Positions 60,709 through 64,000 of a stretch of DNA of 64,000 nucleotides are shown here, piece by piece. The position numbers were made by a program, and so were the translations under genes. Positions within the stretch are counted from its first letter, which is position 1, and each line of letters opens with the position of its first letter. Source of the stretch: Candidatus Omnitrophota bacterium (GTDB lineage: Bacteria; Omnitrophota; Gorgyraeia; Zapsychrales; Fredricksoniimonadaceae); the NCBI GenBank assembly GCA_903908245.1, contig CAIVRE010000002.1, positions 26,761 through 90,760 of the forward strand. Reading direction: 5' to 3'. The notes under the pieces were generated by a model, which did no database searches, had not been told where the DNA came from, and worked only from the letters and a program-made list of their open reading frames with translations.

Positions 60709-60786
60709 TGGTGGACACAGAAGGACTTGAACCTTCGACCTCTGCCATGTGAGGGCAACGCTCTAACCAAACTGAGCTATGTGTCC
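60709..60786 (-). tRNA. tRNA-Val (anticodon CAC), CCA encoded
   Basis: Reverse complement GGACACATAGCTCAGTTTGGTTAGAGCGTTGCCCTCACATGGCAGAGGTCGAAGGTTCAAGTCCTTCTGTGTCCACCA. Confidence 0.8.
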
Positions 60787-60813
60787 ACGAAATTGAAGAA
60801 ATCTTTTCAAAAC

Positions 60814-60887
60814 TGGGCCCACCAGGACTCGAACCTGGGACCAAGAGATTATGAGTCTCCTGCTCTAACCGACTGAGCTATAGGCCC
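60814..60887 (-). tRNA. tRNA with CAU anticodon (elongator Met or lysidine-modified Ile2)
   Basis: Reverse complement GGGCCTATAGCTCAGTCGGTTAGAGCAGGAGACTCATAATCTCTTGGTCCCAGGTTCGAGTCCTGGTGGGCCCA. It closely resembles E. coli ileX. It is not an initiator tRNA, as there is no three-G:C anticodon stem. Confidence 0.75.
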
Positions 60888-61036: not shown

Positions 61037-63841
61037 TTAAAAAACAAGGCTCTGGATCGGCACAATGCTCCGGATAATGGGTGTAAGGCCGGTGAAATCC
61101 CCTTTCCGGAACTGCGCGATCATTGCCGGGTCGAATTGCATCAGGACCGCATTGCCGGTCTCGGCCAGGTCCATTTTCCCGGCATTCAGGTCAATACCAC
61201 CCACCGCATTCTCGGCAGGAGCGGCAAGAACGACCTGTTTGTTCATAAGCAAACCGGTAAAAGGCACTTTGTCCGCAAAAACCAACGAAGGGATCCGGTC
61301 ACCAACGACTTTCTGATACGCGGCCTTCTCTCCATCAGTCATCAGGGCGCTGGTCGCATAGACGTGCACCTGTCCAAGATCTTCCGGCGAAAACGTATCC
61401 GCCATCCATCCAACCAGGTCAGGACCGTTAACCCCGGGTCCACCCATATCTGTATCAGTAATAACCGCGGCAAGGCGGGCGCGGGCATCTGCCGTTCCAA
61501 GGAAGTCCTGTGCTTCCTTCATGTTGCTGACTATCACTATCTTGACTTGGAAGTCGGAATAGTTCGCTTCAATGACCAACTCCAGCATATCCCGTACTTG
61601 TTCATCACCATCAACAACAAGGACCGTTCTACGTGCGACCTTTTCTGCAGGATCGTAAGAATTGATCCTTCCCGCGACACCCGTGTTCTTAGCCCGGGCG
61701 AAAGAAGCCCCTTTTAACGCGGCCAATTTCTCGGCAACGAATGCCCCCAGCCACGGAAGGTCTTTCAGGCGCTGATCATTACTATAAAAGTCCCCATGCC
61801 CGGTCACCCGGCCATCCTGAAAAGTCAGGCTGACATATCCTTTATAATACTGCTGCTCCTCATTGGCCGCCTGTTCGGCCGGCCGGACAATAATATCATA
61901 AATAATATTACCGTCTTTCAACGAATCAACAGTACCGGAACTGATCCTGAAAATAACATCAAAAGCCTCGGCAGAACTGAACACCCGGGTATCGATCCGG
62001 CCGCCTTCCTGGACAAGGGCCGAACGGCGTATGGCCTGCTGCTCGGCTTCCGGATAAGACAATTTCTTGCTCCACCCGAACCGGGCGACCAGCTCTCCGC
62101 CGCGCAAAGTCTGTTCCCATTCACCCACAACTTTCTCGGACGGATCCGCCACAACTTCAATGCGCTCGGGATGCTCCTTGGCAGTCAGCTCGAAACGGTA
62201 TGTCTTCGCCGGCATGTTCTTGTCGCTAATGAAAATAACTTCCGGCTGCGGCTTGTGATAAACAACTTTATATTTCTTCCCCTGACGGACAAAGGCCTGC
62301 GCGTTGGCAATAGCCTCATCCAGGCGCTCCGTTGAAAAGGCCGCCAGCCAGAACGCATTCCCCCACCCCCCCAAAGACTTGTCAGGATCATTCTCAATGA
62401 TCGCGTCAGACGGTAAACTCTCTTTGGCGAAAGCATACCTGGCCTTGACCTCCGGATCATTAAGGAGCGCCGCACGCCCGGAAACAACCTGCCGTTCCAC
62501 ATCCCGCGCGATCGCAAAAACATCAACCGCCTTCGCGGCCGCATCAGGGCCGTCCGCTTCACGCCGCTCCGCCAGGCCGGGTAATGTCCCCTTTTCGGCC
62601 ATTCGCGCCAACCGCTCGTCCCTGCGGGCTGTTTCCATACGGCGGCGATCCCCGGCATTGGCCAATGCCTCAGGGTCCACATTCGGCCGCCGGATGGCGC
62701 GCCGTGAAGCGTCCATTGGAGCAACCTCCACCTCAACATTAACAAGGTCCCCGGCCTTCGCGGCCGCATCGCCCGGCGCCTGCGCAAAAGAAACATCCGA
62801 CGGCTTCACCACACCGCCGGAAAAATACTTGCGCGGAACAACATCCCCCGATGCCTGGTCCACCTCTTCCTTGATGTAATTGAACGCCCCCTTCTTGAAG
62901 GCTTCCACATACCTCAGGTATATCTGCTGCGGATCGATCTTCCCGCCGCGCTCGATCCCGGCCATTTTGTTCTTGTCCGCGTAAACCTGGGACAACAGCG
63001 CCGCTTTTAAATTCTTCTTGTACCATGTTGCCAGGATCATGCTGTGGAAGATCTGCCGCAAGACCGCAAAATTCTTTCCGGCATTGACCTCTTTCTCGAG
63101 CTCCGGAAGCACGATCTCACGAATGATCTGCTTGGAGATCTCGGACACATCCTTCTCCGGCTTGTCTCCGGCGCCAGGGCGTCCCGCTTCGGCTTTCTGC
63201 ATGGCAAGATAATCCGACTCAAGCATGACCTTCAAATGACTGTTCGCAACATAGGCCGTATTCCCCCGGACATAGACCGCCGCACTATCGGCGGTTACCC
63301 AAACCTTGTTAAAAACATCCATTGGGACATCGGTCACTCCGTACTCTTTACGGGCGCGCTCGTAAACACGGGCCCAGAAAGTCCTGCCAAGCTCTTTTTC
63401 AGGATAAATAAGTGAAGACGTGATCTGTTTAAGAAGATAATCCTGGGCGAGCATATCCCGGCCCATCGCGGTTTGCCCCAATTCCTCAGAGACGATCCTG
63501 TCGGATTCATAAGGCGAAAGGTTCACCCACTGGTCCTTGTCCGGGATGGTCATGGATGCCAGAAAATACTTGACGAGCTCCTGGGATTCCTGCGCCAGCC
63601 GCGGATCCTCCCCGTTGGCCGAAAGGCCGGTATTACCGGTATCAACAATGAAATTGAACAGGAACGGATCTTCGGGATGGACCGTAATGCCCTTGAGAAT
63701 GACCGGAACGAACGCCGCGCTTTGGCTGACCAGCGTCCCCGGTTCAGGAAGGATCATGCCCTGGGCATAGGACAACTCGGGCCCGAAAGACAACAAAAGG
63801 ACCAACAACAAAGAAAGGCAGCGACGCAGAGGATTTAACAT
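61037..63841 (-). CDS. large secreted protein with C-terminal receiver (REC)-like domain
   Basis: Signal peptide MLNPLRRCLSLLLVLLLSFGPELSYA, then about 780 aa with no recognisable motif. The C-terminal region has receiver-like positions VLVVDGDEQ, AVITDTDMGG, HVYATS and FADKVPF. Confidence 0.6.
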   Translation of the reverse strand: MLNPLRRCLSLLLVLLLSFGPELSYAQGMILPEPGTLVSQSAAFVPVILKGITVHPEDPFLFNFIVDTGNTGLSANGEDPRLAQESQELVKYFLASMTIPDKDQWVNLSPYESDRIVSEELGQTAMGRDMLAQDYLLKQITSSLIYPEKELGRTFWARVYERARKEYGVTDVPMDVFNKVWVTADSAAVYVRGNTAYVANSHLKVMLESDYLAMQKAEAGRPGAGDKPEKDVSEISKQIIREIVLPELEKEVNAGKNFAVLRQIFHSMILATWYKKNLKAALLSQVYADKNKMAGIERGGKIDPQQIYLRYVEAFKKGAFNYIKEEVDQASGDVVPRKYFSGGVVKPSDVSFAQAPGDAAAKAGDLVNVEVEVAPMDASRRAIRRPNVDPEALANAGDRRRMETARRDERLARMAEKGTLPGLAERREADGPDAAAKAVDVFAIARDVERQVVSGRAALLNDPEVKARYAFAKESLPSDAIIENDPDKSLGGWGNAFWLAAFSTERLDEAIANAQAFVRQGKKYKVVYHKPQPEVIFISDKNMPAKTYRFELTAKEHPERIEVVADPSEKVVGEWEQTLRGGELVARFGWSKKLSYPEAEQQAIRRSALVQEGGRIDTRVFSSAEAFDVIFRISSGTVDSLKDGNIIYDIIVRPAEQAANEEQQYYKGYVSLTFQDGRVTGHGDFYSNDQRLKDLPWLGAFVAEKLAALKGASFARAKNTGVAGRINSYDPAEKVARRTVLVVDGDEQVRDMLELVIEANYSDFQVKIVIVSNMKEAQDFLGTADARARLAAVITDTDMGGPGVNGPDLVGWMADTFSPEDLGQVHVYATSALMTDGEKAAYQKVVGDRIPSLVFADKVPFTGLLMNKQVVLAAPAENAVGGIDLNAGKMDLAETGNAVLMQFDPAMIAQFRKGDFTGLTPIIRSIVPIQSLVF

Positions 63842-64000
63842 TATATTTCCTTATGTGTTTGGTTTTTTAAATACTGCCACTAATAACTATTACATAATGG
63901 AAAATATAACATATGAATCGGCATTCTGCCATGTGGGAGGAAAAATCGGCTTCAAACATCAGCCATTCATTAACGGATGACCTGGAACACCTTATGGATG

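Follow-up and report, generated by a model that had tools for sequence, protein, structure and literature searches.

A divergent receiver domain behind a predicted signal peptide in a large, almost Omnitrophota-restricted protein family with constant ends and variable cargo

Bacteria of the phylum Omnitrophota have been reported as host-dependent or predatory, and giant proteins with proposed post-translational cleavage have been described from them (PMC10066038; bioRxiv 10.1101/2023.11.21.568195; bioRxiv 10.64898/2026.06.07.730766). The Pfam domains of these giants include phosphoglucomutase, hexokinase, receiver, GGDEF and methyltransferase, and proteolytic processing is suspected (bioRxiv 10.1101/2023.11.21.568195; bioRxiv 10.64898/2026.06.07.730766). 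Here, we analyse a much smaller protein of 934 residues, encoded on the minus strand of a 64,000-nucleotide stretch of a Candidatus Omnitrophota contig (CAIVRE010000002.1, positions 26,761 to 90,760), which we call the window. An earlier note on this DNA had described the protein as a signal peptide, a long region with no recognisable motif and a C-terminal receiver-like domain, and had pointed to the paradox of a receiver exported from the cytoplasm.

We found that the protein belongs to a very large family that is confined almost entirely to Omnitrophota and that the searched literature does not describe, a membership that the earlier note missed; members of the family have a constant head and tail and a variable cargo. 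The explanation that we favour, with a probability of about 0.55, is that Sec exports the protein as a modular carrier and that its receiver functions independently of classical phosphotransfer.

Constant ends and variable cargo

Family members share one architecture: a signal peptide, an N-terminal module (N-module), a variable cargo that differs completely between paralogs and a C-terminal motif (C-motif). The 119 best matches all align with aa 1-350 of the window protein and 111 of them also with aa 880-934, with almost nothing between, and their middles carry unrelated Pfam domains. The N-module stands directly after the signal peptide and reads LPxPGTMV ... FDFIVDTGNSG ... WVNLSPYE ... 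HLKVMLExDY ... PRKYFSGG, including the invariant W105-V-N-L-S-P and Y339-F-S-G-G, and its matches reach E-values down to 1e-182. The C-motif follows the pattern GGIDLN...FDPAM..F..GDFxG..PVI..I.PI and always lies within ~37 residues of the stop codon. The central ~780 residues are consequently not free of motifs, as had been claimed: aa 27-343 are 50-61% identical to thousands of proteins, and aa 569-719 form a rare domain that we call GWSK.

A search of 5.8 billion proteins returned at least 3,728 matching protein clusters at E ≤ 1e-3, and among the matching clusters listed every source name is Omnitrophota. Species-representative genomes contain at least 582 loci, several per genome and nearly all in metagenome-assembled genomes (MAGs) labelled Omnitrophota. 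Tandem arrays of two or three copies occur in 16 of 79 loci, where the N-modules are 43-92% identical. A few loci lie in MAGs labelled Planctomycetales (e.g. L010, L017 and L025), Elusimicrobia or Elulimicrobium, and the best genomic match (L001, DYOU01000031.1; 61% identity, similar to database protein P0005) comes from a MAG labelled Candidatus Elulimicrobium (Patescibacteria group). Either these labels reflect mislabelling or binning error, or the family reaches past Omnitrophota.

When N-module open reading frames (ORFs) had their stop codon inside the locus, 47 of the 68 ended in the C-motif. In 6 more, a downstream ORF of the same locus has only the C-motif, which suggests possible frameshift splits. 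A profile search with the C-motif gave only 17 short public ORFs (P0121-P0137, 49-100 aa) that contain little more than the C-motif, and it is uninformative on whether the C-motif occurs alone. These short ORFs are probably fragments of frameshifted family genes; conceivably, they are stand-alone C-motif minigenes.

Pfam and NCBIfam contain no model for either the N-module or the C-motif, a comparison of 40 members showed no recurrent Pfam family, and the motifs of both are absent from the literature searched. The N-module found no match in PDB or BFVD (best Foldseek E-value against PDB, 0.55). AlphaFold2, supplied with 40 family sequences, models aa 40-290 at a pLDDT of 70-96 as a mixed fold with two beta-hairpins and long helices. 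In the full-length model, the C-motif forms a strand-strand-helix-strand unit at a pLDDT of 84-89, compared to 45-65 when modelled without the N-module, with alignment depth also differing between the two models; this gap in confidence would fit docking of the tail onto the head. Within the N-module, FDFIVDTGNSG (aa 62-72) holds a near-invariant D-T-G in an aspartic-protease-like hydrophobic context, and S109, H202 and D210 are also invariant. An aspartic protease assignment found no support, as there is no PDB fold match and the predicted fold is largely helical, and we keep the D-T-G as a lead only.

The comparison of gene neighbourhoods that the earlier note had proposed gave no support to any partner: across 79 family loci, no gene recurs beside family members and no secretion-system gene is linked to them. 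The largest neighbour cluster looks like an antisense ORF artefact, and the next one reflects generic two-component similarity.

The cargos recorded for the best matches include phosphoglucomutase (PGM), Glu/Leu dehydrogenase (GDH), hexokinase, adenylate kinase, UDP-glucose pyrophosphorylase and transaldolase, and further ones are aldose epimerase, methyltransferases, GGDEF, sigma-54 AAA+, DnaJ, TPR and receiver domains. Catalytic signatures are retained in several of them (TASHNP, DGDADR and GEES in PGM, GSPGAGKGT in adenylate kinase, KGGIR in GDH, GGEEF, and DD...D...S...KP in canonical receivers). The window protein carries a spacer, an orphan region, the GWSK domain and the receiver (Table 1), and its nearest relatives carry the same cargo types, with receivers in P0005, P0003 and P0004 and GWSK in P0002. 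The orphan region (aa 440-568) has no homolog in 1.84 billion representative proteins except a frameshifted copy of the same gene (P0001), and a word index of 5.8 billion proteins gave no match for aa 440-880. For aa 440-735, there were 10 matches among the 1.84 billion representatives, all of them through the GWSK domain. All GWSK matches tested carry the family N-module or C-motif (P0002, P0007, P0139, P0141, P0142 and P0075), and the domain can be repeated, with 3 copies in P0002 and at least 4 in P0007 (3-5 repeats).

A four-residue motif recurs at the cargo boundaries. In the variable regions of 110 complete members, D-x-A-M occurs 225 times, compared to 11.6 expected (19-fold), and no other pattern of its type comes near this enrichment; the broader D-x-A-[MQ] occurs 292 times, compared to 31 ± 6 in shuffles. 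Of 109 members, 82 have the form [DEN]-x-A-[MQ] no more than 70 residues past the N-module, and 63 have it no more than 25 residues ahead of GGID. FDPAM is part of the C-motif core, and this is the only place where the window protein has a canonical copy (D905-P-A-M, aa 905-908, 61118-61129). Between its modules there is none, as in 9 of the 109 complete members, and degenerate versions occupy the boundary positions (Table 1), among them DAAA at aa 358-361 (62759-62770) and at aa 433-436 (62534-62545). Because the Asp and Ala codons vary and Shine-Dalgarno (SD)-like words are not enriched upstream, D-x-A-M is selected as a peptide; it may mark sites of processing or act as a docking epitope. 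We rejected a fossil or internal translation start, since SD-like words precede 13.6% of the motifs and 19.7% of other internal Met codons.

The divergent receiver domain

The receiver had been placed in the last ~120 residues. It actually spans aa 736-870, and the last 56 residues are the family C-motif. The sequence strings on which the assignment was based do exist (VLVVDGDE at aa 740, ITDTDM at 794, YATSA at 828 and FADKVPF at 855), and searches with hidden Markov models (HMMs), which the earlier note had recommended as a check, gave a divided answer. The Pfam model Response_reg (PF00072) remains below its cut-off of 30.2 bits, scoring 15.1 bits on the whole protein and 18.1 bits on the excised region, and its match covers profile positions 1-67 of 111 only. 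In contrast, an HMM constructed from the receivers of family paralogs, CheY and Spo0F, with the window protein left out, gives 35.8 bits for aa 733-819, compared to a maximum of 12.2 bits among 2000 shuffled versions of the region. A profile-profile alignment with hhalign has 96.8% probability and extends through beta4. The NCBIfam FixJ model matches aa 738-815 at 6.8e-5, and the best PDB sequence matches are sub-threshold (E ~0.5).

Structure prediction, also proposed earlier, agrees that the region is a receiver. AlphaFold2 models this part of aa 716-934 as a (beta-alpha)5 fold (b1-a1-b2-a2-b3-a3-b4-a4-b5-a5, pLDDT 77-92). Using this receiver model, Foldseek returned 44 PDB matches at E < 1e-3, almost all of them receivers at TM-scores of 0.75-0.80; the best are the XynC receiver 6swl (E 3e-6) and 3ilh (TM 0.80).

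When aligned to CheY, the pocket is only partly intact. D744 is present at the D12 position. D796 (in AAVITDTDM) occupies the D57 position and aligns with the invariant Asp of all paralog receivers, and S831, with T830 adjacent, occupies the T87 position and aligns with the paralogs' Ser/Thr, so that the phospho-acceptor Asp and the Thr/Ser were correctly named. The reported acidic pair is in fact D744-G745, which leaves Gly at the D13 position in both the MAFFT and the hhalign alignments; D746 and E747 follow, and D746 might stand in for the missing acidic residue. The Lys after beta5 exists as K858, but when the Pro of K858-V859-P860 is placed on the Pro of K109-P110, the Lys column holds V859 and K858 lies one residue upstream; the hhalign alignment stops short of this region. 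Based on these comparisons, aa 736-870 are a genuine but divergent receiver, with a pocket that appears non-canonical at two of five positions and that, judging from these residues, probably works without classical phosphotransfer.

The protein has no output domain beside its receiver. In the nearest N-module relatives, P0005 (locus L001), P0003 and P0004, a receiver likewise stands directly before the C-motif, and this shared placement indicates that the order of receiver and C-motif is inherited and no accident. Moreover, the closest relatives P0005/L001 and P0003 combine the same architecture with fully canonical receivers (DD...D...S...KP). Consequently, degeneracy is not a general answer to the paradox. 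The earlier suggestion of a degenerate pseudo-receiver used in the envelope thus finds partial support in the two non-canonical positions of this protein, but does not extend to its closest relatives.

Export and the competing readings

We judged export by sequence rules and by composition. A rule-based check of the N-terminus agrees with the cleavable signal peptide described earlier: a positive n-region with twin Arg, a hydrophobic h-region and small residues at -3 and -1 correspond to the layout for Sec and signal peptidase I (SPase I), and the cut is predicted between A26 and Q27 at an S-x-A site followed by Gln (MLNPLRRCLSLLLVLLLSFGPELSYA, then QG). The signal core comprises 13 uncharged residues (C8-F19, then G20), contains the strongly hydrophobic LLLVLLL and is followed by Pro-Glu. 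It is the sole hydrophobic segment of the protein; elsewhere, the 19-residue Kyte-Doolittle mean is at most 1.32 (maximum at aa 916). The same layout is found in 115 of 120 relatives, where the core has a median of 16 residues (range 7-19) and A/S/V-x-A before Gln is the commonest predicted cut site. Gln at +1 is found in ~70% of family members and recalls the Sec/SPase I Q-rule of Bacteroidetes (PMC5837995).

The composition of the mature chain points the same way. The 908 mature residues (window 61040-63763) contain no cysteine. Across 119 family members the mean cysteine content is 0.05%, with 71 of the 119 having none at all, and enzyme-bearing members longer than 1000 aa have 0-1 cysteine each, the exclusion extending into their PGM, GDH and hexokinase cargos. 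As comparisons, 25 other long ORFs of the window average 0.95% and 190 non-family ORFs of related loci 1.2%. The depletion is roughly 25-fold, while all other amino acids remain within 0.6- to 1.25-fold. Non-family ORFs of the same loci with signal-peptide-like N-termini have 0.36% cysteine, compared to 1.27% (heuristic call, n = 10). Exported proteins are known to exclude cysteine (PMC2823432), and near-absent cysteine is a strong signature of life outside the cytoplasm. Because cysteine exclusion and the signal peptide occur together, an extracytoplasmic location of the whole polypeptide, including its cargo, is the best-supported reading.

Other starts and export routes were considered and rejected. 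The earlier note had allowed that a start at an internal Met would remove the signal peptide and dissolve the paradox. The internal M29 lacks a ribosome-binding site as well as conservation, and the signal is kept family-wide behind an ATG that does have a ribosome-binding site, so the paradox is real. A Tat signal is made unlikely by the sequence L-R-R-C-L-S (consensus S/T-R-R-x-F-L-K), by the strongly hydrophobic core and by the family, in which the twin Arg is not kept and KK, KR or a single K are common. For a lipoprotein (SPase II) there is no lipobox, the sole cysteine (C8) stands at the start of the core after the twin Arg, and most relatives have no cysteine there. Sorting by LPXTG/sortase, PEP-CTERM/exosortase or GlyGly-CTERM was rejected in view of the C-terminus, which has no transmembrane (TM)-like segment and no basic tail, as was a type IX secretion system (T9SS) C-terminal domain, the C-motif having no Pfam or NCBIfam match. 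RTX type I secretion does not fit a single GGIDLN without a repeat array behind an N-terminal signal peptide.

These observations would be explained if the precursor were translocated by Sec and cut after A26, leaving a mature, cysteine-free protein in the periplasm or on the surface of the cell. A function common to the family, such as envelope retention, assembly or targeting, would come from the N-module and C-motif. As neither a kinase nor ATP is expected in that location, and in view of the Gly at the D13 position and an apparently displaced Lys, the receiver would serve as an interaction or switch module independent of phosphorylation. Several points weigh against this explanation. Many cargos of the paralogs look catalytically intact by their motifs and would need cytoplasmic substrates, which sits uneasily with a simple location in the periplasm. 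The role given to the N-module and C-motif is a guess, as neither a fold or family match nor a conserved neighbour guides it. The alignment behind the receiver model consists of paralog receivers, so that the model is not fully independent, and export and cleavage are predicted from sequence rules and composition alone. The family-wide paradox of cytoplasmic-type chemistry behind an export signal stands.

A rival reading takes the cargos as exo-enzymes exported beyond the periplasm, either displayed at the surface or passed into or onto prey by ultra-small, host-dependent cells. Cargos would then meet the metabolites of a partner cell, D-x-A-M would be used for processing or docking, and the receiver could still sense phosphodonors. 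We regard this as possible but doubtful. It would account for intact catalytic motifs being maintained behind a signal peptide in cysteine-free proteins, for the canonical receivers of the closest relatives and for a boundary motif enriched 19-fold under peptide-level selection, and it is in keeping with the reported host-dependent or predatory lifestyle of Omnitrophota and with their giant secreted or membrane proteins that carry the same enzyme and receiver Pfam domains. However, no secretion-system gene is linked to the family genes, the boundary motifs (DAAA, DAAA and ENAV) and the receiver pocket of the window protein are degenerate, and both localisation and cleavage are conjectural. A broader proposal, which we hold tentatively, is that a phylum-wide carrier system, built on the N-module and C-motif, exports, and perhaps displays or delivers, catalytically competent cytoplasmic-type enzymes and signalling domains delimited by D-x-A-M, which would act in processing or docking. 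If true, metabolism and signalling would be outsourced to the surface or to a partner cell, and the window protein would be one receiver-bearing member.

A cytoplasm-facing protein, whose N-terminus is no working export signal or a mere tether and whose receiver has ordinary two-component partners, was the first reading of the earlier note, in the form of an uncleaved N-in anchor with cytoplasmic topology throughout. The positive-inside rule keeps the Arg residues on the cytoplasmic side and sends the chain beyond the core across the membrane, with or without cleavage. Because R6 and R7 precede the core and acidic residues follow it, an N-in anchor with an all-cytoplasmic topology is internally inconsistent. 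The chain should instead lie outside, and there is no second hydrophobic segment to return it. The cargo types ordinarily depend on ATP, NAD(P), UTP or a kinase, the window protein keeps the phospho-acceptor Asp and Ser, and a 2026 preprint reads some long Omnitrophota proteins as membrane-anchored with cytoplasmic domains. Set against a 13-residue core that would be too short for an anchor, the conserved A-x-A cut site before Gln and a ~25-fold cysteine depletion that includes the enzyme cargos and is unexpected for cytoplasmic proteins, these arguments leave the cytoplasm-facing reading improbable. We give slightly less credence still to a structural envelope protein in which the orphan region, GWSK domain and receiver are drifting, functionless remnants from a paralog. 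The cargo region is essentially without homologs, the receiver falls below the Pfam threshold with its D13 and K-P arrangement lost, and the boundary motifs are degenerate, all as expected from such drift. Yet the 2.8-kb frame is intact and identical on at least five contigs, the receiver is still modelled as a confident (beta-alpha)5 fold with D796 and S831 kept, and the cargo region is as cysteine-free as the family, suggesting continued selection. We therefore retain the exported carrier as the preferred explanation.

The locus and its relation to known systems

The 934-residue ORF is a genuine gene. It starts with ATG behind an AAGGA ribosome-binding site, and at least five independent public contigs, one of them a 157-kb ENA scaffold, encode an identical product. 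A database entry of 551 aa (P0001) is the same gene, frameshifted after residue ~467, and continues in an alternative frame inside the gene (window 62185-62796, minus strand). Therefore, at least one public assembly of the locus has an indel, while at least five contigs are intact, and the long ORF is the real one because its intact frame ends in a conserved motif. Both the AAGGA and a weak promoter match (Table 1) lie in an AT-rich intergenic region of 129 nt. The promoter consensus scan found 5 sites there, compared to 2.8 ± 1.7 in shuffles, which is not significant alone.

Table 1. Positions of the gene, its upstream signals and the parts of its product within the window
Feature	Residues (aa)	Window positions	Strand	Remarks
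Complete gene	934 codons + stop	61037..63841	minus	ORF list, ATG start; stop codon 61037-61039
SD-like AAGGA		63848..63852	minus	6 nt 5′ of ATG; direct sequence reading
Weak sigma-70-like promoter match		63903..63932	minus	ATGGCA-18-TATATT, TG-extended; consensus scan
Signal peptide (predicted)	1-26	63764..63841	minus	n-region R6 R7, h-region C8-F19, c-region GPELSYA
Family N-module	27-343	62813..63763	minus	common to 119/119 best matches, 45-61% identity
Spacer	344-439	62525..62812	minus	Ala/Arg/Glu-rich, mostly low-confidence helix, bounded by two DAAAKA
Degenerate DAAAKA	358-363	62753-62770	minus	boundary position
Degenerate DAAAKA	433-438	62528-62545	minus	boundary position
Orphan cargo	440-568	62138..62524	minus	predicted helices then beta-meander, low confidence
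GWSK cargo domain	569-719	61685..62137	minus	GWSKKLS...LPWLGAFVAEKLAALKGASF; rare repeatable domain
Divergent receiver (REC)	736-870	61232..61636	minus	profile, hhalign, AlphaFold2, Foldseek
Degenerate ENAV	877-880	61202-61213	minus	just before C-motif
Family C-motif	879-934	61040..61207	minus	AV-GGIDLN...FDPAMIAQFRKGDFTGLTPIIRSIVPIQSLVF; in 111/119 best matches

The gene neighbourhood is of a housekeeping type and no island. On the 157-kb scaffold, the gene is flanked on one side by rpoD and a small secreted hypothetical protein, and on the other by tRNA-Met, tRNA-Val, a zinc-ribbon protein, RNase H, yebC and ruvCA. No kinase gene lies within 10 kb on either side, and no further paralog of the gene was found within the 64-kb window. 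Directly downstream in the window are tRNA-Val(CAC) and tRNA-Met(CAT) (60709-60887, minus strand), and beyond them come a zinc-ribbon (PF02591) protein, RNase H, YebC, RuvC, RuvA, ScpB, PheA and HisC. The upstream neighbour is a hypothetical protein of 164 aa (9378-9872 of contig L080), of which only the last codons fall within the window, near 63970-64000. It has its own signal peptide (…GMAVLA, then QQ) with Gln at +1, two cysteines and no Pfam domain on record, and it adjoins the gene on a second contig (L081) too. The minus strand carries most of the long ORFs listed for window positions 1-64000, and every 2-kb bin has a negative GC skew; strand bias and skew would fit one replichore whose genes are strongly co-oriented, as has been reported for complete genomes of Omnitrophota.

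If the proteins of this family are exported, one phylum routinely puts ATP-, NAD- and phosphoryl-dependent domains, receivers included, outside the membrane. That would contradict the assumption that their partners confine receivers to the cytoplasm, and it would bear on how ultra-small, host-dependent Omnitrophota feed and signal, a question discussed so far only for giant proteins that are experimentally intractable. At 0.5-2.5 kaa, and with neither TM helices nor cysteines, the carriers are of a size at which expression, localisation and assays are feasible, which makes the question testable. Moreover, the N-module, the C-motif and the D-x-A-M boundary are three uncharacterised conserved elements with which thousands of hypothetical proteins can be annotated.

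Compared to CheY-like receivers (PF00072), including aspartate-less ones and pseudo-receivers, the window protein's domain has the same (beta-alpha)5 fold, the Asp after beta3 and the Ser after beta4, and in structure it comes closest to the XynC, Cytophaga and GacS receivers. It differs by scoring below the gathering threshold, by Gly at D13 and by K-V-P in place of K-P. Unlike them, it also stands behind a signal peptide in a cysteine-free protein that has no output domain and no kinase gene nearby.

The giant multi-enzyme and Archaeovorin-type proteins share with the carriers their phylum and the combination of signal peptides and cytoplasm-type Pfam domains in one polypeptide. They are 10,000-147,000 aa long with many TM helices, whereas the carriers have 0.5-2.5 kaa and no TM helix. 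Both papers on the giants make no mention of a bracket formed by N-module and C-motif.

A T9SS is not known in Omnitrophota. The carriers differ from T9SS cargo in a C-motif that does not match the T9SS C-terminal domain in sequence or through Pfam/NCBIfam and is ~55 aa long, compared to a beta-sandwich of 80-100 aa, and in a constant N-module of 320 aa that T9SS cargo lacks. What they have in common is a Sec signal, a variable functional middle, a short conserved C-terminal element that occurs in many proteins of one phylum with little else in common, and Gln at +1 (Q-rule, PMC5837995).

Polymorphic toxins and effectors resemble the family in having many paralogs per genome, tandem arrays, and a constant targeting part joined to a hypervariable functional part. 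Unlike these toxins, the carriers have no recurrent immunity-like small genes beside them, and their cargos are housekeeping and signalling domains rather than nucleases, deaminases or pore-formers, held between two protein ends that are both conserved.

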